DNA from: a virus
Virus record (IMG/VR): IMGVR_UViG_3300046387_001332
Reading direction: 5' to 3' (one strand)
DNA length: 64,000 bases
The notes below the pieces were generated by a model. It searched no databases, had not been told where the DNA came from, and saw nothing but the letters and a program-made list of their open reading frames with translations. Positions 3,702-43,849 of the stretch are shown here, one piece after another (position 1 is the stretch's first letter; each line of letters opens with the position of its first letter). A program made the position numbers and the translations under genes.

Positions 3702-5810
3702 ATGGCAACACTACAAAACAGATCAGCATTTAATTTAAGAGGGTGTCAACCAATTGGTGGTCAGGCACTACAAACTACATCAAGTTCATGTGATGCTGAT
3801 GTTCTTGAGAATATATATGAACAAGTAAAGCAAGCAGCCAAAGACTACAGATGGGAGTCTGAAAGAACTACATTACGAGCAAAACTTACATACAATTGTC
3901 CTAAAGTTGGTGATGCAGTAAGATGGGACCCTAAAATAAATGGATTTAATTTAGCATACGCAATGTATGATACTAACAATCCATCCGACCAAGAGCACCT
4001 AATAGAAGTTGTTGGTATCGTAGAAAGTGTTAGTGTAACCTGCGATGGTTCGGGTAGTGAAATAAACGCAAACGAAACCGAAACAAATGCAGTAATAGTA
4101 ACTTCCGGGAAAGTATCATTTGATCAACTTAAATCAGAATCATATCTTGAAAGTGGGAAAGTTTACTATTTGTGGGACAGAAACCATCCTGCTCATGTTG
4201 CACTTGGTAATAATGTTTCATCTGATGTACATGAACCGATAATCAGTAAACCACTTTTTGTTTCAACAGGAACAAACACCGGAATGGTTTTAAATTATCG
4301 TCCCATGACAGGTTCACCAACGGGTGGTAGAGCACAAACAGAAAAGTATGAAATTGATATAGTAAAAACGGCTGCCGAAGGTGGTGGTTGGTTCATAACA
4401 ATAAAAAACATAGGTGGAATTGCATCAAGACACCCACTAATTGCCCAGATTGACTATAACAGAAGAACCGGACCAAGAGAGTCACTGAATGGTCAAGAGG
4501 TTCATACTATGTTCAAAAACATAGGAATTCTTCATAGCAAGGCAGTTGCCGATCAACATCCAACGGACACACTTGAATCAGAAACATCTTTTTATGTTAC
4601 AAAAAATTCTGAGTTTGGTATTAGTGGAGGAATTTCGGATAATATAATTGATGGACTAAACGGAGTCGGTGAAATTACCGTAACACTTAAGTCAAATACG
4701 GCAAATACCCAAAGTTCATCGTTACTAAAATCATTAATACCATTTCAAACAAGTCCAACTGCTCGTAGATTTCCAAACATCAAAGTACGTGGTGAGTGTG
4801 CATATGCGAGTCAACGAGACAACACAGAATCAGAAGACGAAAACAATTTATACATTGACAACAACGACACGGATATTCCAGACTTGGTTGTTTCTCCATC
4901 TGGTGCATCAACTGCGTATAGTTTTGAAGGTGTAATCTTTGAAATTACACTTGAAAAAGATGCTCAAAATGAAGAAATTTATGTGCCAATGGCAGATGAA
5001 ATGTATTTTAAAATAGATAGTCCAAGTTTAGACGAACCAATTATTAACAAATTTAAACTAACCGCAGAGCAGACTGCCGTAGAAATTATACCAGTCAACG
5101 AACTAGGTGAGGGTATAACAAAAGAAAATGTAACTCTGTCAGTAATAACACAGGACGGAGAAGAACTAAACATTAAACATTGGGGAAGAACCATACAACA
5201 ATCTTCGTATATATGTGATAGTGAAAGATGTTGTGATGAAGATAAAGTTACTGTTGATGTTAATGATGGTCTCACAAATGCTTCTGCAAAACTTGAGGAT
5301 TTATTAGTGGCAGACGGAGATAGTAAATTTATGACAACCGGTGTTAACGGAAAAACAATAGACACAACACCAAGATTACATACACTTGATCCTGAAAAAA
5401 CAATAGACTTACCATCAGGAACACCATCGAATGGATTAAGGTGTACATTTAAAAACGCACGTGAAAACACTATATTCTGTTATCCAAAGAATGTATTATC
5501 GGGAACACAACCCTCATTTATGGCAATTTACTTTAACGAAGCAAGACAAGGTACACTAGGCATAAGAAACGCAAAGGATTACGATCCACGATATATAGCA
5601 ATAGAAATAGGTGGTCAAGATACACTTAATGGTGCAGTTGTTACCGTTACATTAAATTCCGGACAAGAAAATGAGTGTTGCATAGACTTTAAGTTTGATG
5701 GAAGTGCAAACGGAACACACTATACATTCAGAGAACTATATCAAGCAGGATTAATTGTAAAAAGATCAAGCAACTCTGACATATTATTTGGAATAGAGGA
5801 TGGGGTGTAA
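3702..5810 (+). CDS. Putative virion structural protein
   Basis: Shares the VGDAV...EVVGIV...GKVYYL...SKPL...NYR domain with 1549..3303; SD GAGGA. Confidence 0.55.
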   Translation: MATLQNRSAFNLRGCQPIGGQALQTTSSSCDADVLENIYEQVKQAAKDYRWESERTTLRAKLTYNCPKVGDAVRWDPKINGFNLAYAMYDTNNPSDQEHLIEVVGIVESVSVTCDGSGSEINANETETNAVIVTSGKVSFDQLKSESYLESGKVYYLWDRNHPAHVALGNNVSSDVHEPIISKPLFVSTGTNTGMVLNYRPMTGSPTGGRAQTEKYEIDIVKTAAEGGGWFITIKNIGGIASRHPLIAQIDYNRRTGPRESLNGQEVHTMFKNIGILHSKAVADQHPTDTLESETSFYVTKNSEFGISGGISDNIIDGLNGVGEITVTLKSNTANTQSSSLLKSLIPFQTSPTARRFPNIKVRGECAYASQRDNTESEDENNLYIDNNDTDIPDLVVSPSGASTAYSFEGVIFEITLEKDAQNEEIYVPMADEMYFKIDSPSLDEPIINKFKLTAEQTAVEIIPVNELGEGITKENVTLSVITQDGEELNIKHWGRTIQQSSYICDSERCCDEDKVTVDVNDGLTNASAKLEDLLVADGDSKFMTTGVNGKTIDTTPRLHTLDPEKTIDLPSGTPSNGLRCTFKNARENTIFCYPKNVLSGTQPSFMAIYFNEARQGTLGIRNAKDYDPRYIAIEIGGQDTLNGAVVTVTLNSGQENECCIDFKFDGSANGTHYTFRELYQAGLIVKRSSNSDILFGIEDGV

Positions 5811-7180
5811 TGAATAATGATAACGTCACGATTATTGTCCCAATTTATAGACTAATATCCAACAGATTTAATAACTTTTGTTATTTAATCAAAAAATTGA
5901 ATAAACTAGACTGCGATGTGGTGGTTGTTGAACAAGAAAGTGACAAAACTCTGGTAATAGAGCAATACTTATTAAACTACACAAACATTACTCATTTAAT
6001 TTACAAAAGTAATTCCAACAAATTTAATAAATCAAAAATCATAAACTATGCAACCAAGGATGTTTATACCGAATATATATGGATTGTAGACGGAGATTTT
6101 TATACTGATTTTAATTTTGTCTTACAAAGTATTGATACAACAACAGACTTTATACGTCCATTTTCAGAAGTAATCTTTCTCGACAAAGAAGAAACATATC
6201 GTCTTCATTCGAGTGACATTGCACAATTAAACAACGAAACTGAATATAAATCTAATTCGCAAAATGGAAAATTTTCATTTATTGTTAGAAATTCATCTTT
6301 TGTTGATGCCGGTGGAATGAACGAAGATTTTGAGGGGTGGGGGTTTCAAGATTTAGATTTCGTAGAGAACAGACTTAAACCAGGAGTAAGTTTTGGCACT
6401 GTCTCGCAGACGGCATATCATATGTACCACGCACCTGCTTCACGTGAAAATGTAAATATCAATCGTCAACTTTACACAAACTACAATCGGGCTGCGATAA
6501 AACAACTTATATCAAAAAAAATAAAAGAATATAATGGTAAAACAGAAGTTGTATTAAATAAAAAAAGTTTATACCGTGAAAAACATCAAAAAGATGGTAC
6601 TGAACTTGAGACTTATCATCAAGAAACTGAAAAGAAAACACGAATAATAAAAAAATGGAATGAACCAAAGTTTGGTGTAGTATATTCATCAGATTCAAGG
6701 GTATTCTATCCTGGACTTGATGTAATAACCGTAAGAGACTCAAATTCTCATAAATTAAAAAATGTAAATGGTACATTTTCACGTGTTAAAACTGAAAATC
6801 ATTTTTTATATTACTATTACGAATATATTTGTCACATATACGAAGTATTGCCTAATGACAGAACACTGTTATTTGCAAATGATACTTTTTGTAGTAACTA
6901 TAGTGACATAAACGATTTAAATAGTAAGATAAAAAAAGTAAAGAATGGTGAAATACTAGATGTAGAGGAACAAGGTTATACATCTCTATATAAAGAGTTT
7001 AAGCACTCATTGCTCGATAGACCTTTTTCTAAAACAGGATGCTTTTTGGTAAATTCTAATAAAATCTTAAATAAAAAGTTTGATTATTATTATTCACTTT
7101 TAATGCAAATGAAAAACTGGAAACGAGAAGATTTCCAAGCACAGATAAGTGAGTTTAAAAAAGTTTTGTTTGACAAGTAG
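5810..7180 (+). CDS. GT-A fold glycosyltransferase (GT2/GT7C-like) with DUF3431-like C-terminal domain
   Basis: TIIVPIY, VVVVEQ, FNKSKIIN, DGD (DxD), GGMNEDFEGWGFQDLDF, YHMYH; C-terminal YICHIYEVLP...FLVNSNKILNKKFDYY. Confidence 0.8.
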   Translation: MNNDNVTIIVPIYRLISNRFNNFCYLIKKLNKLDCDVVVVEQESDKTLVIEQYLLNYTNITHLIYKSNSNKFNKSKIINYATKDVYTEYIWIVDGDFYTDFNFVLQSIDTTTDFIRPFSEVIFLDKEETYRLHSSDIAQLNNETEYKSNSQNGKFSFIVRNSSFVDAGGMNEDFEGWGFQDLDFVENRLKPGVSFGTVSQTAYHMYHAPASRENVNINRQLYTNYNRAAIKQLISKKIKEYNGKTEVVLNKKSLYREKHQKDGTELETYHQETEKKTRIIKKWNEPKFGVVYSSDSRVFYPGLDVITVRDSNSHKLKNVNGTFSRVKTENHFLYYYYEYICHIYEVLPNDRTLLFANDTFCSNYSDINDLNSKIKKVKNGEILDVEEQGYTSLYKEFKHSLLDRPFSKTGCFLVNSNKILNKKFDYYYSLLMQMKNWKREDFQAQISEFKKVLFDK

Positions 7181-7198
7181 CAAACTATAATATAATCT
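7170..7198 (+). promoter_or_regulatory. Sigma70-type promoter, probably near-leaderless
   Basis: TTGACA 7170-7175, 17 nt, TAATCT 7193-7198 (overlapping TATAAT 7191-7196); ATG at 7206. Confidence 0.6.
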
Positions 7199-7205
7199 TT
7201 TCTGT

Positions 7206-7874
7206 ATGAATTATACCGAAAAGCAACTTGAAGAAAATTATACTAAATTTCTGCAATTTATTGAAAACACATTTGAAGGAGACAGGCAAAAAAAGTTACT
7301 TCATATGTTTGGAACTGATGATGGGTGTCTTGGTTTACGTGCGTTGATTTCTCCTGCGAGTAGTATTGATAGATTTCACAACGCATATGATGGTGGATAT
7401 ATTGACCATGTTATGGGTGTATGTAAAACGGTTCGTGGGGTTAAAGTTCTACTACAAAGCATAGGTGCAAATATAGACTTTACGGATGACGAAATGATGT
7501 TCGCAGCCTTCAATCACGACCTTGGCAAACTTGGATCACTTGACGGAGAACAATATCAACACAACGATAGTGAATGGCATCGCAAGAATCAAGGAAAGTT
7601 GTATAACATAAATCCTGATATTCACTGGATGTCAGTCACAGATAGATCAATCTGGTTACTTCAGCACTTTGAAATTAAAATAACTGAGAAAGAATTTCTC
7701 GGAATAAAACTTTCAGACGGAATGTATGATGAAGCAAACCCACAATACCTAAAAGCATTTTCAAAAGAAGTGGGGTTGAAAACAGAACTTCCAAGAGTTA
7801 TTCATTGGGCAGATCATATGACTTGTTTGGCAGAAAAGTCCAATATGGATAACATAATGAAGTTTGAACCGTAA
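7206..7874 (+). CDS. HD-domain phosphohydrolase
   Basis: HNAYDGGYIDH, NHDLGKLG and IHWAD motifs. Confidence 0.85.
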   Translation: MNYTEKQLEENYTKFLQFIENTFEGDRQKKLLHMFGTDDGCLGLRALISPASSIDRFHNAYDGGYIDHVMGVCKTVRGVKVLLQSIGANIDFTDDEMMFAAFNHDLGKLGSLDGEQYQHNDSEWHRKNQGKLYNINPDIHWMSVTDRSIWLLQHFEIKITEKEFLGIKLSDGMYDEANPQYLKAFSKEVGLKTELPRVIHWADHMTCLAEKSNMDNIMKFEP

Positions 7875-7912
7875 ACTTGACTTTTTTATATATTATAGTA
7901 TATTTATCATTA

Positions 7913-7962
7913 GAGTAATGCTCAAATGAGGTTACTCGGCGGATGCCCAAAACGGGATTCGT
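7913..7962 (+). promoter_or_regulatory. Tandem bulged-G hairpins in hsp20 leader (candidate cis-regulatory RNA)
   Basis: GAGTAAT-G-CTC-aaat-GAG-GTTACTC and GCGGAT-G-CCC-aaaac-GGG-ATTCGT have the same architecture. Confidence 0.5.
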
Positions 7963-7983
7963 AACCAAATAGGAATAAATAAA

Positions 7984-8481
7984 ATGAAAAACTACGGATA
8001 TAATAAGTCCACAGGAACAGGACTTGGTAAACACGTTCCAAATTTAAGAGACGAATTTTTAACTCCATTCGACTCTATTTTTGACAAAATGGTCAATCAA
8101 GCATTTCCAAACTTCGGACAGGAATTCGGAGTAAACTTTTTTGGAAATAGTTCATATCCAAGAGTAAATGTTGCAGACACGACCAAAGAGGTAAGAATTG
8201 AAGCAGAAATTGCAGGACTTGGAAAAGAAGATGTCTCTGTTGAATATGAAGATGGGTTGCTCACAATTTCAGGTGACAAAAAGACCGAAATTGAAGATCC
8301 AGATGTAAAATATGTTTACAAGGAACTGAAAAGGTCCTCTTTTAAAAGGTCTTTTAAGGTCGATAAAACAACATTAAATGTTAATAAGATTTCCGCAAAG
8401 TTTGACAACGGAATTCTAAATATTACTATTCCAAAAAAAGAAGTAATTGAAACAAAATCAAAGAAGGTTAAAATCCTTTAA
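7984..8481 (+). CDS. Small heat-shock protein (Hsp20/alpha-crystallin)
   Basis: YPRVNV, AEIAGLGKEDVSV, LTISG, SFKRSF, AKFDNGILNITIPK. Confidence 0.93.
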   Translation: MKNYGYNKSTGTGLGKHVPNLRDEFLTPFDSIFDKMVNQAFPNFGQEFGVNFFGNSSYPRVNVADTTKEVRIEAEIAGLGKEDVSVEYEDGLLTISGDKKTEIEDPDVKYVYKELKRSSFKRSFKVDKTTLNVNKISAKFDNGILNITIPKKEVIETKSKKVKIL

Positions 8482-8507
8482 TTATCTAACTTAAACAACT
8501 TAAAAAT

Positions 8508-8536
8508 AAAAGGGGGTAAATTTACCCTCTTTTTTT
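8508..8536 (+). terminator. Rho-independent terminator after hsp20
   Basis: AAAAGGGGGTAAA/TTTACCCTCTTTT inverted repeat followed by a T run. Confidence 0.75.
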
Positions 8537-8614
8537 ATAACTATATTATATTTATACATATAATAATGTGTGTTGGTAGAATTACGAAAATAGAAAAGGG
8601 AGATATGTATTAAT

Positions 8615-9709
8615 ATGAAGTTATTTACTGCTATTATAGGCGGACTCGCACTTGCAGTAGCAGGAACGGCTGCTTTCTTTTCGGTGCGTGGTATTGGGTT
8701 ATTATTTGCAGGTGCGGCCATTGCAGCCATGGTTATGGCAGGAGTATTAGAGGCAGGAAAACTTGCAATGACTTCATTTTTGTATCGTTATTGGGAAAGA
8801 ATTCCAAGAATGTTAAAATGGTATTGCACAATTGCAGTTGTAGTTTTGATTGGAATTACTTCTTTGGGTATTTACGGATTTTTAAGTGATGCATATGATG
8901 ACACACGATCAAGAGTTGAAATGCACGAAAGTAACATAGAGACACTAAACAAAGAAATAGTAGTTATTGAAACTGAAATTGAAACACTTAAAAACACAGA
9001 TGTAACAGTTGAAGATAAAAAGACCGAAACGATTGCAGGTTTCCAAAAGATATATGATGATTTTGTAGCAGACGGAAGAAAACGACAAGATGCACTTGCT
9101 AATAGAAATAAAACCGACACAGAAGCAAGAGGACTACGCAGACAACAATTAATGGATCGTCTTGCAGTATTAGATAAATCTAAAAGTGAATTAGAATCAA
9201 AGGGTGGTGGGTTATTTAGTAACAATAAAAAGAAAATAGAAGAACTAAGGATAGCACAACAACCTGAAAGAGATTCTATCGCAAAGTCACTATCAGCAAT
9301 AACAGACGAAGAAACTTCCGCAACAAAATCATATAACGATGCTCTTGCAAAAATAGACGATCAGATTTCAAGTGAATACGATAAATTTGTGGAAAAAGTA
9401 AATGGTCTTCGTGATACAACAAACGATTTAGATAATGTAACTATCATAGAAGACAAGTATGATAAAATAAAAGAAAACCAAGCAGATATATTAAAAGAAA
9501 AAGAAGGAATCCGTGCAACCGATATTGGTAGTTTTCGTTTTATAGCAGAATCATTTAATATGCCAGTAGACCAAGTTGTAAAATGGTTTATTATTGTAAT
9601 TGTTTTGGTATTTGATCCCGTTGCAGTTGCACTTGTGTTAGCATACAACATTATGGTAGGCGGAAGAATGACCCTTGGAGAAGAGTTACCGAAAAAAAAA
9701 ATTGGATAG
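8615..9709 (+). CDS. Membrane protein (N-terminal TM helices, long coiled coil, C-terminal TM); zero-frame product of a putative frameshift gene
   Basis: Hydrophobic N-terminal helices, heptad-rich middle, [21 protein letters not shown]; ends PKKKIG* across an A10 run. Confidence 0.8.
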
Positions 9710-10416
9710 ATAATTTACCATTTGCTGACCGATTCCAAGAAGATGGTGATTTTATAGAAGATGTAGTTGAAGAAACACCAACTCCAACTCCAACTGAGAC
9801 ACCAACTCCAACACCAAGTCCGTCTCAAACTCCAACACCAAGTCCGTCTCAAACTCCAATTGAGACACCTACTCCAACACCAAGTCCTTCTCAAACTCCA
9901 ACCGAGACACCAACTCCAACACCAAGTCCGTCTCAAACTCCAACACCAAGTCCGTCTCAAACTCCAACCGAGACACCAACCCCAACACCAAGTCCGTCTC
10001 AAACTCCAACACCAAGTCCTTCTCAAACTCCAACACCAAGTCCTTCTCAAACTCCAACACCAAGTCCGTCTCAAACTCCAACTAGGACACCTACTCCAAC
10101 ACCAAGTCCTTCTCAAACTCCAACCGAGACACCAACTCCAACACCAAGTCCCAACATAACACCATCTCCGATAATAGAAAACAAAAAGATACGAAAAGAT
10201 GATGAGAATGTAATTTCAACACCAATGTACGATACAGAACTAGAATCAAAAGGACCGTATTATGTACCTTGGAAAAAAAGTTCAATGGACGCACATAGTA
10301 AATATTTTGCAAAAACAATATACAAGAATAATAAAGGATATATACCAAATAGTACCCTTGGAAATGTACCAACTAAAGAAAAAAAAGAAGAATCTGACAA
10401 TAAAGATGGTAAATAA
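9700..10416 (+). CDS. -1-frame mucin-like (Thr/Pro/Ser) extension of 8615..9709
   Basis: Frame is open from 9616 to TAA at 10416 with no ATG before 10225; reads [43 protein letters not shown]...; entered at the A10 run 9692-9701. Confidence 0.65.
9775..10152 (+). repeat. Coding tandem repeat: 24-bp ACTCCAACACCAAGTCCKTCTCAA (TPTPSPSQ) units interspersed with 18-bp TPTETP-like units
   Basis: Directly visible; variation among the 24-bp units is at third codon positions of the TPTPSPSQ frame (CCG/CCT, ACT/ACC). Confidence 0.9.
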
Positions 10417-10428
10417 ATTACTTAAACA

Positions 10429-10458
10429 TTGACAAATCAACTATTTAAGGGTTATTAT
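10429..10458 (+). promoter_or_regulatory. Sigma70-type promoter for the small membrane protein/sigma factor pair
   Basis: TTGACA 10429-10434, TATTAT 10453-10458 (18-nt spacer); ATG at 10466. Confidence 0.5.
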
Positions 10459-10465
10459 TTAAAAT

Positions 10466-10717
10466 ATGACTGTGTATATTTTTAGTGGATTGGTATTAGT
10501 AGTTCTTATTTTATTGTATATAATTTTTAATTTATATAGAAAAGTTTCGTTATATGAAGAATGGACAATTGAAACACTAAACGAGTTAAACTCTACAGTT
10601 GAAACATGGAAAGAGTTAGACAGTAAACAATTATTTGAAAAAGATGATGAAGTTGGAGTCATCTTTGATGAACTTAATATAACAATAAAAAACCTAGAGA
10701 AAAGGCTAGACAATTAA
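10466..10717 (+). CDS. Small single-pass membrane protein
   Basis: N-terminal hydrophobic helix; TAATG overlap with the next gene. Confidence 0.7.
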   Translation: MTVYIFSGLVLVVLILLYIIFNLYRKVSLYEEWTIETLNELNSTVETWKELDSKQLFEKDDEVGVIFDELNITIKNLEKRLDN

Positions 10718-11448
10718 TGGAAGAAGTAAAATTCAAGAAAAAAAGAAAACCAAGATCAAAAAACAAAAAAATATACTTTTCGCAAGATACAGAAGATGCA
10801 ATTGTAGAATATAATAATTCAGAAGATGTAATTTTCAGAAATAATATATACAACGAAAGAATAAGTTACGCATTCGATAAACTAGCGGAAAATATTTTAA
10901 ATACATTTAAGTTTTCTTATTTTCAGTGTAGTCACGAAGAGGTACAACAAGAAGTTGTTAGTAATTTAGTAAGTAATATACACAAGTATAAACAAGGAAA
11001 CGGAAAAGCATTTTCCTATTTTAGTATAATTGCAAAGAATTTTTTAATTTTATATAACAATGGAAACTATAAAAAATTTAAAAGACACGAAAGTGTTGAT
11101 GACGAAGAAATAATTTACGAAAAGAAAGAACTCACGGTCAATCCAAAAAGTGAAACTCATAAAAAAGAATTAAGTGAGTTTGTAACATTAATGATTGCGT
11201 ATTACGATAAACACCTAGAACGATTATTTAAAAAGCAAAATGAATTTAAAATTGCGTGTGCAGTTATTGAAATATTCAGAAGAAGTGACTCAATAGAGAA
11301 TTTTAACAAAAAAGCACTTTATCTGTATATCAGAGAAATGACAGATTGTAAAACACAGAATATCACAAAAGTTGTAAATAAAATGAAAGATATCCAGTCT
11401 CAGTTAACACGGTCATATATTGACAAAGGTTATATTGACATGGATTAA
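10717..11448 (+). CDS. Phage sigma factor (gp55-like, probably late transcription)
   Basis: Region-2-like helices ending KAFSYFSIIAKNFLI (compare the gp55-family NPFAYFTQI motif); N-terminal YF...AIVEYN. Confidence 0.7.
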   Translation: MEEVKFKKKRKPRSKNKKIYFSQDTEDAIVEYNNSEDVIFRNNIYNERISYAFDKLAENILNTFKFSYFQCSHEEVQQEVVSNLVSNIHKYKQGNGKAFSYFSIIAKNFLILYNNGNYKKFKRHESVDDEEIIYEKKELTVNPKSETHKKELSEFVTLMIAYYDKHLERLFKKQNEFKIACAVIEIFRRSDSIENFNKKALYLYIREMTDCKTQNITKVVNKMKDIQSQLTRSYIDKGYIDMD

Positions 11449-11494
11449 CTCTTATTCATTACCATAAAAAATATATACATCTATATTTATATTT

Positions 11495-11899
11495 ATGGAT
11501 TCTGATACTGAAATTTTTAAGGGAAAAACATTCTCTTCACTTGTAAAAGATATATACTTCAACTCAAATCACAAAAAAGAGCAAATCAATCAATTGATTA
11601 AAGATTTGCGTGAAATGGTAAAGGATATAGGTTCTGCGACTGTAATTGCACCAATGATAAAAGACTATATAGATGTTGGAGTTAAAAACGATGATCAACT
11701 TGTAAAATTGTCTGCCGTTTTAACTAGATTTATCAATGGTACATCTTCGTCATCAGATGATACGGGAGGCAGTGGTATGCTAACGGAAGGTGAAAAAGAA
11801 GAATTGTTAAATAATGTAAAAAAAGAGTTAAATGATTTAGAAGAAAAATCAGCAAGTATTGATAAACAAATAAAGCAATCAAAGGATGGCATACAGTAA
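11495..11899 (+). CDS. Hypothetical helical protein
   Basis: ORF preceded by ATATTTAT; overlaps the next gene's start. Confidence 0.65.
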   Translation: MDSDTEIFKGKTFSSLVKDIYFNSNHKKEQINQLIKDLREMVKDIGSATVIAPMIKDYIDVGVKNDDQLVKLSAVLTRFINGTSSSSDDTGGSGMLTEGEKEELLNNVKKELNDLEEKSASIDKQIKQSKDGIQ

Positions 11900-38185: not shown

Positions 38186-38713
38186 ATGCCAAAAAACAAA
38201 TTATGTCTCGGACTGGATTTAAGTTCTACTACGGTTGGTTATTGTTTTTCATCATCTTCAACTGATATTTTAAAAGCAGGATTCATTCCAGTTCATAAAG
38301 AAATCTCCATTAGAAGTAAAGCACATAAGGTTGCAGAGGAATTGAAAAATATTCAACTGCAACCTTTTGTTGTTATTGTAGAAGATTCGTTAAGTGGATT
38401 TGGTGGTGGGAGAACAAGTCAGCAGACTATTGTAAAATTAGCAAAGTGTAATGCCATAATAAGTTATGTTGTAGAAGAGTTGTATAATATAGAAGTACAA
38501 CATATAAATGTATCTACCATGCGTAAAGCAGTATTTGGAAAAAGCAGAGAAAAAGGATTAGATAGTAAAACATTTGTAAAGTGCAATCTTGAAAATATGC
38601 TTGATTTATCCGACTTTATTCACTATAATTCTAAGAATAATTATGATAAAAAAAACTATGATATGCTTGATGCCGTAGTCGCATCTTTGTATTATTGGTA
38701 TTCTTTAAAATAG
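38186..38713 (+). CDS. RuvC-like Holliday junction resolvase
   Basis: LGLDLSSTTVG, IVED and DMLDA RNase H-fold acidic motifs. Confidence 0.8.
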   Translation: MPKNKLCLGLDLSSTTVGYCFSSSSTDILKAGFIPVHKEISIRSKAHKVAEELKNIQLQPFVVIVEDSLSGFGGGRTSQQTIVKLAKCNAIISYVVEELYNIEVQHINVSTMRKAVFGKSREKGLDSKTFVKCNLENMLDLSDFIHYNSKNNYDKKNYDMLDAVVASLYYWYSLK

Positions 38714-39642
38714 TGGGCATCTCTGAACAAAAACTTCTCAATCTTCTGCAAAAAGTATTAGGAGCTGGAAAAATCGTCTCTAAAGACGAGGCTATGTTTT
38801 TGTGTCCATTTTCCCATCATAGAAAACCCAAACTTGCGATTAATTTATCCACACAAAGATGGCAAAGTTGGATTGATACAAATGCAAAGGGAAGATCAAT
38901 CTATGGTTTATTCAAAAAGATGAATGTTGCTCCGCAATATCTTACAGAACTTTCAAGAATTGTAAAGATACCCAAAAGTACGCAACAAAGTGAAGAAGAA
39001 CAAATTAAAATTCATCTTCCATACGAATTTACCTCATTGCGGTATGATACTGAAAAAACGAGATCATCAAAGGCTGCGTTTAATTATCTAAGACAAAGAA
39101 ACATATTTTCTTATGATATAGAAAGATATAATATTGGATATTGCGAAAGTGGTGATTATGCGAATAGAATCATAGTACCATCATATGATTGCGACAATAA
39201 TTTAAATTATTTTATAGCAAGAGATTTTACCGGAACTGCGTATTTACGATACAAAAATCCACCAGTCAGTAAAGATGTTGTGGTGTTTGAGAATCAAATT
39301 GATTTCTCCGAACCACTTATTTTTTGTGAAGGTGTATTTGATGCTATGGCAATTCGTCGAAATGCAATTCCACTATTGGGGAAGAATATTCCAAGTAAAC
39401 TAAAAACAAAATTAGTTGAACATGGAGTTTCTGAAATATGCATTGTTCTTGATAACGATGCATTTAAAAACGCATTACAAATTTCCGAAACATTGATGAA
39501 CGAGAATGTTCGTGTCAAATTAGTAAAAATGGGAAATGACGATGCGGCGGACATTGGGTTTAATAAAATAATTCATAAAATTAGAAATGCAGAACTTCTT
39601 GATTTTAGTGAATTGATGAAGCAAAAGTTATGCATGAACTAA
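38713..39642 (+). CDS. DnaG-type (TOPRIM) DNA primase
   Basis: CPF..H, YLRQR, RIIVP, FIAR, YKNP, CEGVFDA, LDNDA; GTG overlapping the upstream TAG preferred to the track start at 38695. Confidence 0.88.
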   Translation: MGISEQKLLNLLQKVLGAGKIVSKDEAMFLCPFSHHRKPKLAINLSTQRWQSWIDTNAKGRSIYGLFKKMNVAPQYLTELSRIVKIPKSTQQSEEEQIKIHLPYEFTSLRYDTEKTRSSKAAFNYLRQRNIFSYDIERYNIGYCESGDYANRIIVPSYDCDNNLNYFIARDFTGTAYLRYKNPPVSKDVVVFENQIDFSEPLIFCEGVFDAMAIRRNAIPLLGKNIPSKLKTKLVEHGVSEICIVLDNDAFKNALQISETLMNENVRVKLVKMGNDDAADIGFNKIIHKIRNAELLDFSELMKQKLCMN

Positions 39643-40334
39643 AAACAAATTTAAAGAACGTTGAAAAAGTATATCATCTCGCAGACATTCATATAAGAAA
39701 CGTAAAAAGACACAACGAATATTCATTGGTATTTGAAAACTTTTACAAACAAGTAAAAGAAGATAATCTTGATAACGCAATTATTTTTATTGGTGGAGAC
39801 ATTGCTCATGCCAAAACAGAAATGAGTCCAGAGTTGATTCATCAAATATCTTCATTTTTAAGAGAGTGTTCTAAACTTCATCCAACGATTGTTATTGCTG
39901 GTAACCACGATTGTAATTTAAACAATCCTGATCGTCTTGATGTATTGTCTCCTATTATGGACATGATGGATGATGACAATTTATTTTATTTAAAAGATAG
40001 TGGTGCATATAAAATAGGTGATGTCGCAATTGGTGTATTTGGTATTTTTGATGATCCCAACGAATATGTACGTGGAACTGATATAACAGATAAATCTATT
40101 AATACAAAGATTGCAGTTTATCATGGTGCAGTAAAAAGAAGCAGAACTGATGTTGGTTATGTTGTTATGGGAGGTGACATTGAGTTGCCTATGTTCAATG
40201 GATATGATATAGTCATGTTGGGTGATATCCACAAATATCAAACACTACAAGAATACCAAACAGAGCATAGATTTATACCCGAATCTAAAGTTGATGAATA
40301 TAAACTAGAAGGATGGGAACTTGCAGATGTCTAA
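39630..40334 (+). CDS. Mre11/SbcD/gp47-like nuclease, N-terminal fragment
   Basis: Metallophosphoesterase motifs DIH, GGD, GNHD, YHG and LGDIH; lacks the following YxGS segment, which is in 41249..43849. Confidence 0.88.
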   Translation: MHELKTNLKNVEKVYHLADIHIRNVKRHNEYSLVFENFYKQVKEDNLDNAIIFIGGDIAHAKTEMSPELIHQISSFLRECSKLHPTIVIAGNHDCNLNNPDRLDVLSPIMDMMDDDNLFYLKDSGAYKIGDVAIGVFGIFDDPNEYVRGTDITDKSINTKIAVYHGAVKRSRTDVGYVVMGGDIELPMFNGYDIVMLGDIHKYQTLQEYQTEHRFIPESKVDEYKLEGWELADV

Positions 40335-41259
40335 ACGATTTTTAATAAAGTGCAACCACATTCACATTGGTGATATTTTATTTGCAAGCAGTGTTGCAAA
40401 AAAATTAAATGAAGAACAAGGACCGTGTTCTGTCCATTTCTCAGTAAATTACTTGCAACCGATTGAGTTGCTCAATAATAATCCTTACATTGATAAAGTC
40501 TTTTTTAATGAAAGTTTCGGAACATACGATGAAGTTTTCAATTTAATCGGAGACACAGACACACTAAATCCATATGAATCTGCGGTATCTCAATTTCAAA
40601 GAATGTGTAATATAAAAAACTTCGATGATACCTTTGAAATTTATACAAACCCTTCTTTAGATTATTCAATTAGTGAAAGTTTTCGTGAACTTGTTAAAAT
40701 AGGAGATTGGCCAAACTCATTAATTAAAGTAGGTTATCAGTGTGACTGGGATAAAAAAAGTTTTTTATTTACCGAAGAACAATACGAACGTGCTGAACAC
40801 GGAGAAGACGGAACAGGATATGGTGATGGTTCTCGTAATGTATACGATATTATCAATTGTCTAGAAATTAATTCTAATATTATGTTATTTGCGTTGGGTC
40901 TTGATGATAAAATTTCAAAAAGATATCCTGCTATCAATTCAACTAGCAAATTTACTTTTACTGCAAGTTTAATTAAGAATTGTGATTTTGTTATAGGAGC
41001 AGAGGGGTGTCTAACAAACATATCATCTGCGTTGGGTGTGAAAACAATAATTACCACAGATTACATACACCAAATGTTTGGACCCAAAGGAATTAAATGG
41101 CAACAAGAAGGTGGTGATTTAAATAACCTAGAATGTCGTAAACCTTTTTTAGGACCTTGTAATTATTTTCCGAAAGCAGATCACATCCACCTCAATCCAT
41201 ATCTCACCGATCAACAAGTTGGAGAAGAAATTTTAAAAGTAGTTACACATGGAAGATAA
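40327..41259 (+). CDS. GT9-like (GT-B fold) glycosyltransferase inserted within the Mre11-Rad50 gene
   Basis: HIGDILFASSVAKKL, LLNNNPYIDKV, TASLIKNCDFVIGAEGCLTNISSALGVKTI. Confidence 0.75.
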   Translation: MSKRFLIKCNHIHIGDILFASSVAKKLNEEQGPCSVHFSVNYLQPIELLNNNPYIDKVFFNESFGTYDEVFNLIGDTDTLNPYESAVSQFQRMCNIKNFDDTFEIYTNPSLDYSISESFRELVKIGDWPNSLIKVGYQCDWDKKSFLFTEEQYERAEHGEDGTGYGDGSRNVYDIINCLEINSNIMLFALGLDDKISKRYPAINSTSKFTFTASLIKNCDFVIGAEGCLTNISSALGVKTIITTDYIHQMFGPKGIKWQQEGGDLNNLECRKPFLGPCNYFPKADHIHLNPYLTDQQVGEEILKVVTHGR

Positions 41260-43849
41260 AGAGAGTTACGTAAAAATAAAAAGACACAACGGTCAGAAAC
41301 CAGTTGTAGTGTATTCGGGAAGCATGATTCAACAAAATCATGGTGAAAAACCATTTGGTCATGGTTATGTTTTGTGGGACCTGAAATCACGTACACATAA
41401 GCACACAGAAGTATTCAATGAATATGGATATTATACCATTGAAGTAAGAGATGGAAAGTGTGTAAGTGACTTGGATAAACTTCCCACGAAAGCAAGATTG
41501 CGGGTAAAAGTATTTAACACAACTGCAACTGAAACTAAAGAAATAATTGCAGAGATACGAAAGAAAACAAGCATAACTGACTTAAATGTCACACGGTGCG
41601 ATGCAATATCTGAAGCAAAAAAGTTTGATCGTGACAATAAGTTTGATTTTGGTGACATATCACTTGTACAAGTACAAAATGACTTAATAGAAGATTATCT
41701 TCGCAGAAATTTTGTTGTTGATGATGACCAAGTAAAAACTGCTCTTGATATTAATAAAGAAATCAACGATAAACTTGTAGTAAAAGAAGTTCTTCGTAAT
41801 TGCATCTGGAAACCAAAGAAGTTTGAATTCTCAAATATGTTTAGTTACGGTGATGGTAACATTGTAGATTTTTCAAATATGAAAAGTGTCATGGGATTGT
41901 TTGCTTCAAATGCAAGTGGAAAAAGCAGTGTAATGAGTGCATTGAGTTTTTGTTTGTTTGATAAATGTGATCGTGCTTTTAAGGCATCCCATGTTTTAAA
42001 CACACAAACTGATTCATTTTATTGTAAACTAAATTTTGAAATAGGTGGAGTAGATTATTTTATTGACCGTCAAGCAACAACAAAGAAGAACGGTGACGTA
42101 ACTGTCGTGGTAGACTTCTGGAAGCATGATATCGATGGTAACACAATATCGTTAAACGGAGAACAGAGGGCTGGGACAAATGCTATAATTCGTGATCATG
42201 TGGGTTCGTATGATGACTTTGTTTTGACTACATTAAGTTTGCAAAATAATAATGCAATTTTTATAGATAAAAGTCAAAGTGAACGAAAAGATTTACTTGC
42301 ACAATTTATGGGCATAGATACATTTGATCAATTACACTCTACTGCTTCCGAAGACATTAAAGAAATAAATGCTTTACTTAAAAGATTTAATCGTGACGAT
42401 TTTGATGAAACTCTTGCAGATGTAAAAGAAAAACTTGATAGAATAAATGAAGAGTATAATCAACAAGATAGTAAGACTAATGTAGCATTACTTGAACAGA
42501 AAAGATTAAATAAAGAATTGGCTGATAAAAATTCATTATTTAAAAATTGTTCGTTTGATGAAACCGCAGTTGATATTGATAAATTAGAATTTAATAAAAA
42601 TAATTTAAAAGAAAGACTTGAAATAGCAAAAGATAATCGTTCGGATGAATCCACAAGAAAGAAAAGTTTAACATTAGAAAAGAAAAATTGCTCACAACAA
42701 ATATCCGAACTAAAAGGTACAGAAGAAAAGTATATAAGTGTATTAAAAGTTCGTGAAGATATTACAAAAGTAGAAAAAGATTTGGCCGTACTGAGAACAT
42801 CAGTTAATGCTAAGTTAGATAAATTAAAACATTATGATAGTCATCAATATGACCCAAAGTGTAAGTTTTGTGTTAACAATTCTAAAAATCTTATTGAAAG
42901 TGCAGAGCAAACTAAAACTGAACTTGATAAAGACAAAGCAGCGGCGGACGAGTTGGTAAAACAAAAAACTATTTTTAGTGATATACTTGAAGATAATAAA
43001 GATGTAGAATCCAATTATGAATTGCTAAAAGATTTAAATAATAAATCTAATCAACTTGTGTTTGAAATAAACGAAGCAGATTCTAAAGTTCTTGCTTTGT
43101 CTAGTATGATTGAATCTCTTGAAAAAGATATTGTTTTAAATGATAAAAATATTAAAGAATATTATGAGTGCAAAGACATAATTGAGTTTAATAAAAATAT
43201 ACAAAAAGAAGTTGGTGAATTAAATTTAAAATTAAATTCTGTAAATAAAATTGCAAATGATGAAAGTGAAAAACTTCAAACACTTTTCGGTGAAGTTAAA
43301 ATTGTAGAAAAAGAGCATGATGATGTAATCTCTTCAATTGAAGAAGCAAAAAGTTATGAAAGAAAAAAACGAGGATACGAGTTGTATCTCGATGCTGTCA
43401 AACGAGATGGTATATCATACGAACTTATTTCCAAAACTATTCCAAGTATTGAAAGTGAAGTAAATAATATACTTTCTCAGATTGTTGATTTTGGTATGAA
43501 TCTTGAAATGGACGGAAAACATATTTACTCAAAAATAACCTACGAGGATCGGCATTGGCCATTAGAGATGTGTAGTGGTATGGAACGATTCATAAGCAGT
43601 ATTGCTATGCGTGTAGCACTTATTAATGTAAGTAGTCTTCCTCGTTCTAATTTCCTTGTTATTGACGAGGGGTGGGGTACATTAGACGGAGACAATATTA
43701 GTAGTGTATTTAACTTATTTACTTATCTAAAAGGTCAGTTTGAGTTTATCGTGGTCATTAGTCACTTGGATGTTATGCGAGATATGGTGGATGAAATTGT
43801 AGAAATTCAAAGAGAAGGTTCATTTAGTAAGATAAATTACGGAGCATAA
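41249..43849 (+). CDS. Mre11 C-terminal part fused to Rad50/SbcC/gp46-like ATPase
   Basis: VVYSGSMIQQNHGE...GHGYVLWD, then Walker A NASGKSS, coiled coils, CKFC hook, SGME signature, VIDEGWGTLD and ISH. Confidence 0.9.
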   Translation: MEDKESYVKIKRHNGQKPVVVYSGSMIQQNHGEKPFGHGYVLWDLKSRTHKHTEVFNEYGYYTIEVRDGKCVSDLDKLPTKARLRVKVFNTTATETKEIIAEIRKKTSITDLNVTRCDAISEAKKFDRDNKFDFGDISLVQVQNDLIEDYLRRNFVVDDDQVKTALDINKEINDKLVVKEVLRNCIWKPKKFEFSNMFSYGDGNIVDFSNMKSVMGLFASNASGKSSVMSALSFCLFDKCDRAFKASHVLNTQTDSFYCKLNFEIGGVDYFIDRQATTKKNGDVTVVVDFWKHDIDGNTISLNGEQRAGTNAIIRDHVGSYDDFVLTTLSLQNNNAIFIDKSQSERKDLLAQFMGIDTFDQLHSTASEDIKEINALLKRFNRDDFDETLADVKEKLDRINEEYNQQDSKTNVALLEQKRLNKELADKNSLFKNCSFDETAVDIDKLEFNKNNLKERLEIAKDNRSDESTRKKSLTLEKKNCSQQISELKGTEEKYISVLKVREDITKVEKDLAVLRTSVNAKLDKLKHYDSHQYDPKCKFCVNNSKNLIESAEQTKTELDKDKAAADELVKQKTIFSDILEDNKDVESNYELLKDLNNKSNQLVFEINEADSKVLALSSMIESLEKDIVLNDKNIKEYYECKDIIEFNKNIQKEVGELNLKLNSVNKIANDESEKLQTLFGEVKIVEKEHDDVISSIEEAKSYERKKRGYELYLDAVKRDGISYELISKTIPSIESEVNNILSQIVDFGMNLEMDGKHIYSKITYEDRHWPLEMCSGMERFISSIAMRVALINVSSLPRSNFLVIDEGWGTLDGDNISSVFNLFTYLKGQFEFIVVISHLDVMRDMVDEIVEIQREGSFSKINYGA

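Follow-up and report, generated by a model that had tools for sequence, protein, structure and literature searches.

A small module split at a conserved break in phage single-chain Mre11-Rad50 genes: a probable clasp between the two halves

In the 64,000-nucleotide stretch of viral DNA analysed here (IMG/VR record IMGVR_UViG_3300046387_001332; hereafter, the window), the gene for a single-chain Mre11-Rad50 protein is broken in two within the Mre11 (SbcD) nuclease. According to structure prediction, the extra residues on the two sides of the break, an acidic tail at the end of part 1 and a head at the start of part 2, are the halves of one module of about 40 residues with the order strand-helix-strand-strand, and the break falls at the last beta-turn of this module. 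In the single-chain Mre11-Rad50 proteins of phages, the module would be located at the tip of the beta-hairpin downstream of Mre11 motif V and would mark a conserved fracture site occupied by free-standing homing endonuclease genes, most likely moving with the endonuclease cassette by recombination between phage alleles. The pieces would be translated from coupled, overlapping open reading frames (ORFs), and the basic strand of part 2 would pair between the two strands of the acidic tail of part 1, under the helix, thereby extending the native hairpin and keeping the halves together without splicing. In the lineage of the window, a glycosyltransferase-like gene appears to have replaced the endonuclease gene, with the clasp kept. 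Taken as a whole, this explanation, in which the peptides are module halves, the fracture site is cassette-borne and the clasp is not spliced, is probable.

Layout of the split gene and its extra residues

Part 1 and part 2 are the N-terminal and C-terminal halves of one SbcD/Mre11 nuclease, encoded by adjacent ORFs that flank a gap gene:

39630-40334, plus strand: part 1, the N-terminal part of Mre11/SbcD, 234 amino acids (aa), with the motifs up to GDIH and then the tail
40236-40256, plus strand: native hairpin strand YQTLQEY, residues 203-209, shared with insert-free unsplit relatives
40257-40331, plus strand: acidic tail QTEHRFIPESKVDEYKLEGWELADV, 25 insert-specific residues
40327-41259, plus strand: gap gene with an ATG start, 310 aa, glycosyltransferase-like, overlapping both neighbours
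41249-41296, plus strand: head MEDKESYVKIKRHNGQ, delimited from an alignment of 21 heads and the model of the unsplit homolog L094
41249-43849, plus strand: part 2, 866 aa, the remaining Mre11 nuclease and capping domain, fused to Rad50/SbcC

Part 1 matches the Pfam family Metallophos (2.2e-08) and the SbcD-like PHROG_100 (2.6e-17), and its metallophosphoesterase motifs end with motif V, GDIH (residues 198-201). Part 2 matches the SbcC-like PHROG_77 (7.8e-41), with additional weak matches to SMC_N and the SbcC Walker B profile. The reference for the unsplit state is Microcystis phage Mel-JY01 which, behind the same primase-like gene as in the window, encodes a single protein of 1066 aa that is collinear with the two parts combined, shows 37-40% identity to part 1 over its N-terminus and reads GDIHKMQYMDTERRLAYPGSLIQQNFGE at the break site. 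The C-terminal end of part 1, quoted here at different lengths of the same acidic tail, is EYKLEGWELADV, GDIHKYQTLQEYQTEHRFIPESKVDEYKLEGWELADV or YQTLQEYQTEHRFIPESKVDEYKLEGWELADV, each running into the stop codon, and part 2 begins with MEDKESYVKIKRHNGQKPVVVYSGSMIQQNHGE, of which the head portion, MEDKESYVKIKR, is more basic than the tail. These two peptides had been singled out in a first-pass annotation of the window, one closing part 1 and the other opening part 2, and both their placement and their coordinates hold.

The gap ORF overlaps part 1 by 8 nucleotides (nt) at the stop codon of the latter (40332-40334) and the start of part 2 by 11 nt (41249-41259). No plus-strand terminators were found among the three ORFs, and promoter-like sites in this region are at the background level. 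A Toprim primase-like gene (38695-39642) lies immediately upstream, its end overlapping the start of part 1 (39630), and is syntenic in Mel-JY01 and in the uncultured 484-kb phage LR756508.

Most of the relatives are unsplit, with a single-chain Mre11-Rad50 of about 1050 aa and only 10-20 residues between GDIHK and Y.GS; this short-hairpin majority is seen across at least 570 IMG/VR loci and 3193 cluster representatives. Some unsplit relatives read GDIHKRQ.LQEYN...KKPIVVY.GS at the site, so that the short native hairpin is made of the strands LQEY and KP.VVY. The insert of the window, consisting of the 25 tail residues and some 13-16 head residues, lies between GDIHK.Q.LQEY and KP.VVY.GS. These approximately 38 extra residues are absent from most of the relatives, namely, the unsplit short-hairpin forms, but are retained in a few unsplit proteins (P0179, P0126, P0204, P0178, P0202, P0139, L094/L138, L098/L123 and L103), where the turns of the natural insert are native-looking and variable in length. 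Unsplit homologs that carry the insert, which the first-pass annotation had called for, thus exist.

Fold of the module and position of the break

The joined state was modelled with AlphaFold2 on one of these natural unsplit proteins, L094 (residues 1-345, 52-row alignment). The mean pLDDT of the model is 92.6, with 88-96 in the blocks that cover the insert, and its best matches in the Protein Data Bank (PDB) are the SbcD/Mre11 structures 7dog, 4lty, 1ii7 and 6s6v. Downstream of GDIHK (184-188), the model contains two strands (191-194 and 197-201), a helix (204-212), the G214-W215 pair, a further strand (216-219), a two-residue turn (E220-N221), another strand (222-226) and, finally, the native strand 229-232. 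The break can be placed on this model through L120, a split locus whose part 2 is 95% identical to L094 over its first 150 residues: part 1 of L120 ends with ..GWEIVEEIV and part 2 starts with MTKKYKIRKAQ.., and when these termini are mapped on L094, the break falls exactly at the E220-N221 turn. Aligned to the same model, the tail of the window provides strand 1, the helix (E218-L226), G228-W229 and strand 2 (E230-D233), and residues Y7-R12 of the head (41267-41284) correspond to strand 3, which continues into the native strand KPVVVYSGS. The 45-residue module folded alone retains the strand-helix-strand-strand order, with a pLDDT of 78.8 (84-89 in the core). The proposal that the two peptides are parts of a single small fold interrupted at a beta-turn is therefore borne out by the models of both the unsplit protein and the joined peptide.

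From the secondary structure and the connectivity of the chain, the head strand would be expected to lie between the first and second strands of the tail, prolonging the native hairpin ladder on one edge and making a tight hairpin on the opposite one. When complex prediction was applied to the peptides as separate chains of 44 and 40 residues, each with its own alignment, the score was 0.17, with the mark at 0.32; this result counts neither way.

Conservation of the tail and the head

The same break, with the same tail and head, recurs in relatives that are 45-58% identical. The phage LR756508 has the same split, with a tail EYEVEEMVVEEDELEKYLNSGWKLDENLDDY that ends at the stop codon and a head MSDDKYRVKRVWPEAVFSGS, and a different gap gene. 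A length-restricted search yielded dozens of clusters of N-terminal halves (220-242 aa, 45-58% identity), all of which stop a few residues past the motif ..E.[ED][LV]..YL..GWE[IL]. In public data, the same tail was found in 103 short N-terminal halves, 99% of which have a net acidic tail, with a mean charge of -4.9. An alignment of 20 diverse tails shows no variation in the Y..GW motif, and 21 heads taken from the loci show the consensus M.KK[IVY]K[IL][KR][KR], with a mean charge of +4.9. The GW and K.K[KR] signatures are conserved, in line with the first-pass annotation, which had named GWE/KIKR.

Across 18 diverse loci, the tail and head together (the putative clasp) are on average 44% identical, compared with 46% in the nuclease domain and 38% in the capping domain. 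In the clade of the window (12 loci), the tail has a pN/pS of 0.28 and the head one of 0.27, compared with 0.18 and 0.14 for the flanking domains, synonymous sites being near saturation at this depth (pS 0.6-0.7). On these substitution patterns, selection on both peptides is purifying, and the conservation pattern is far beyond chance.

The module is present in every split form that was examined, and there is no true split form without it; the short proteins that lack the tail are contig-end fragments or adapter chimeras. Four of these, P0057, P0092, P0097 and P0116, end with ..LLYTSDAADE or ..LSLIHI, which resemble translated sequencing-adapter sequence, so that these apparent short forms are assembly artefacts rather than splits. 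Two other variations on the split protein were noticed. P0125 and P0181 (about 550 aa) are N-terminal halves with the same tail and some 300 extra residues within the nuclease domain, which is matched in two stretches; the additional segment may be an intein or another insertion. In L090 (reverse strand, 6002-9581) and L126 (reverse strand, 9064-11531), part 2 is just 76 aa long and is followed by 2-3 small ORFs, after which the rest of the capping domain and Rad50 continue in a new ORF. The clade of L090 and L126 thus has a second fracture, with different termini.

Precedents and the likely role of the two peptides

A locus of this type has been described before. In metagenomic data from Lake Gatun (GOS), SbcD-like halves flank a Vsr-like gene, without an intein; 25 extra C-terminal and 9 extra N-terminal residues are absent from the unsplit homologs, and the gap gene runs at its 3' end into the start of the next ORF (Dassa, London, Stoddard, Pietrokovski 2009, Nucleic Acids Res 37:2560, PMC2677866). 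The window shares with that locus the two ORFs that encode the halves of the nuclease, extra residues on both sides, a gap gene, the lack of an intein and the overlap. The extra residues number 25 and 9 there and 25 and about 13-16 here, where the overlap is 11 nt. The two differ in the gap gene itself, a Vsr-like endonuclease there and a glycosyltransferase-like gene in the window. In the 2009 paper, the extra residues were not read as one fold, and unsplit forms with the insert, other endonuclease classes and empty sites were not reported.

The second precedent is the split ribonucleotide reductase of Aeromonas phage Aeh1, with the arrangement nrdA-a / mobE / nrdA-b, where oppositely charged tails created by the insertion of mobE are essential; similar tails were predicted in other fractured genes (Crona et al. 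2011, Nucleic Acids Res 39:1381, PMC3045599). There, a free-standing homing endonuclease gene fractures an essential phage gene, and the new C-terminal and N-terminal tails, of opposite charge, make the insertion phenotypically neutral; the Mre11 case shares the fracture and the opposite charges, and its tails would act in a similar way. The two cases involve different host enzymes and unrelated-looking stretches of tail sequence, and the polarity is reversed, the C-terminal tail being acidic and the N-terminal head basic in the Mre11 case. Furthermore, the SbcD-like tails form a defined, predicted fold that is also found unsplit, and the NrdA tails were tested biochemically, whereas the present case is built from sequence and a structural model.

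A clasp role for the tail and the head is likely. The alternative is that these peptides are not a clasp at all: the halves would rejoin through the ordinary core interface of Mre11, as the head runs directly into a core strand, and the module would serve another role, such as Mre11 dimerisation, contact with Rad50 or DNA, or regulation. This possibility draws on the NrdA case, where the tails are dispensable for pairing of the halves and essential for dimerisation and activity, and on the retention of the module in some unsplit proteins, where no clasp is needed. It is nevertheless improbable because the module accompanies every split, the break always falls at the same turn within it and the charges of the two pieces are complementary.

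The gap gene and the occupants of the site

In the window, the gap does not hold a free-standing homing endonuclease gene, the feature of the Lake Gatun type of locus, whereas relatives have such a gene or its remnants. The gap protein shows weak matches to DUF354 and heptosyltransferase III, and domain searches revealed no zinc finger or nuclease motif in it; by its sequence, it is glycosyltransferase-like and not an endonuclease. The same gene occupies the gap in L003-L009, L108, L111, L115, L117, L129 and L134, and the gap proteins of the window clade are 290-330 aa long, without a zinc finger. A homolog with 40% identity (L162:4001-4861) lies among genes for GT1, GT2, GT7, DegT and hexapeptide-transferase proteins, that is, in a glycan biosynthesis cluster. 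This context supports a sugar-transfer role and indicates that members of the family are normally ordinary free-standing genes.

A degenerate DNA pattern for GDIHK..GWE retrieved 53 further IMG/VR stretches, which display graded contents of the gap. In the unsplit forms with the insert (L094 and L138), 144 nt separate GDIHK from Y.GS. Several split forms have almost no spacer, with TAG AA ATG in L097, TAA TGT ATG, in frame, in L100 and 5 nt in L090/L133. Gaps of 60-350 nt in L042, L104, L107, L125 and L112 contain a C-terminal remnant of a DUF559/Vsr-like endonuclease (..DWKLIRIWE..), and the gap of L120 contains the remnant end of an HNH enzyme. The full gap genes (250-320 aa) encode an N-terminal CxxC zinc finger and NUMOD joined to one of three nuclease domains:

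TnsA-like gap endonuclease: L002, L084, L101, L126
DUF559/Vsr-like gap endonuclease: L083, L136, L127
HNH gap endonuclease: L116, L128

This arrangement suggests a single DNA-recognition part with swapped cutters directed at the same target site. The graded contents indicate that the site is a landing site of homing endonucleases, seen at every stage of their life cycle; in the window, an ordinary gene has moved into it. In line with the tolerance to gene insertion postulated in the first-pass annotation, different phages hold different genes at the site, including endonucleases and the glycosyltransferase-like gene, or remnants, or none.

Could a degenerate split intein, an intron or translational bypass instead join the halves, either covalently or at the level of the RNA? 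The split inteins of fractured phage genes resemble the present case in that an endonuclease gene lies between the halves and the association involves complementary charged pieces, and related genes do carry true split inteins elsewhere, for example, in the Rad50 P-loop of L083. The split intein reading was nonetheless rejected: the tail and the head, together only some 40 residues, are far too small and have no splicing motifs, the tail ends with ADV at the stop codon and the head begins with MEDK, without the Cys, Ser or Thr that protein splicing needs as the first residue, and the Pfam search of the window locus found no intein domain; the product stays as two chains. The intron and bypass readings were rejected as well, given that the Rfam search of the locus found no intron and the gap is filled by a full, conserved ORF of 0.9 kb. 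Rejoining of this kind is extremely improbable.

The L083 locus (3816-8145) is worth a separate description. Here, the Rad50 P-loop is broken a second time, between ..FAPNASGK and C.., by what seems to be a true split intein: an N-intein-like piece closes the upstream ORF, a 422-aa endonuclease-like ORF (4617-5885) follows, and the next ORF opens with a C-intein-like piece that ends with ..GIISHN before S and has a weak Intein_splicing match.

Origin of the insert

The presence of the insert was analysed by Fitch parsimony on a maximum-likelihood tree of 174 N-terminal domains. At least 26 changes are required on this tree; when the labels are shuffled, 47 are needed on average and never fewer than 40. 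The insert-bearing forms are scattered among the insert-free ones, and 13 small clades with support of at least 0.9 mix both states. By form, there are 9 unsplit proteins with the insert, 121 split ones and 131 unsplit ones without the insert. The unsplit L094 belongs to a clade (support 0.92) that is otherwise entirely split. What distinguishes it from L120 is a 154-nt segment with an HNH remnant, bounded by GAAGAAA repeats, so that L094 is most simply a re-fusion after the loss of the endonuclease gene. Together, the scatter, the rarity of the unsplit insert forms and the position of L094 favour an insert that travels with the cassette through recombination between alleles, as proposed for the insertion of the NrdA tails (Crona et al., PMC3045599). 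The distribution suggests, then, movement of the insert with the homing endonuclease cassette and not the later cutting of an old host domain.

The opposite order of events was part of the original proposal: an old host mini-domain, possibly derived from DUF4177, would have been inserted first into the Mre11 hairpin and later cut by gene insertions at its beta-turn, providing a ready-made clasp. Unsplit insert forms with native-looking turns of variable length do occur in several lineages, and a compact fold is hard to derive from random flanking DNA. The rarity of these forms relative to the split and the insert-free unsplit ones, the 13 supported sister groups that pair insert-bearing with insert-free forms, and the place of L094 inside a split clade, with only the HNH remnant separating it from L120, speak against this order. 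Thus, insertion first and cutting later did not find support, and we regard it as unlikely.

The affinity to DUF4177 (PF13783) bears on the same question. The likeness consists of a helix ending with GW[RE]L, a strand after it and a final strand with a basic end; in the members of DUF4177, the loops between these elements are longer. The Pfam model (cut-off 25 bits) has no match at E <= 10 in six natural unsplit inserts and none in the records of Mel-JY01 and LR756508 searched in all six frames. When a profile built from six true members of DUF4177, all encoded in genomes of a single bacterial phylum, was compared by hhalign with a clasp profile of 31 sequences, a probability of 55% and a score of 23.1 were obtained over 18 columns that span the end of the helix and the GW-strand; the controls scored 5.4 (reversed) and, for the best of 30 column shuffles, 16.0, and this difference is the point in favour of an old domain. 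Among structures, DUF4177 does not appear among the ten listed Atlas matches of the isolated module, which are generic, a language-model search of the Atlas with the module gave no usable match, and a wide PDB search with the isolated module produced only generic substructure matches (Z <= 3.7). The resemblance of the clasp to DUF4177 is real at the level of the motif; homology is unproven, and the membership in a DUF4177-like family that had initially been assigned to the peptides was not upheld, the local profile match being weak.

Discussion

Several observations weigh against the combination of a cassette-borne fracture and a clasp. The tail of the window has a charge of -4, and the head is only weakly basic, at +1 to +2. 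The position of the head strand between the tail strands comes from secondary structure and chain connectivity, not from coordinates. In NrdA, the tails are needed for higher-order assembly and not for the pairing of the halves, so that the role of the clasp could be indirect here, too. With respect to the origin, many losses of an old insert would produce the same scattered pattern. Finally, divergence of the clasp correlates with that of a host domain at r = 0.56, compared with r = 0.87 between host domains; the lower value is suggestive of horizontal movement of the clasp but could also result merely from constraint, the motif being short.

Both the concept and a first locus of this type have been in the literature since 2009 and 2011, and there is no new mechanism here. 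The contribution is the breadth of the comparison, the structural detail and the unusual gap gene that is not an endonuclease.

A bolder interpretation can be considered, in which the tail and the head are an autonomous, portable split mini-domain that modular endonuclease cassettes carry as their own antidote, and the left-over fracture site now serves as a landing pad for ordinary genes, such as the glycosyltransferase-like gene. We find this doubtful. If true, it would add to introns and inteins a third way for an insertion to do no harm, and the module could hold other split proteins together. The module is also a natural, compact candidate for split-protein engineering.

The comparative series traces the whole life cycle of a cassette, from intact endonucleases of three nuclease types through remnants, empty split sites and re-fused genes to the glycosyltransferase-like occupant. 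A small fold seems to be rebuilt across the break from two peptides that are short, conserved and opposite in charge, and the case shows, at large scale, how an essential repair enzyme can be cut in two by a selfish gene and survive without splicing.

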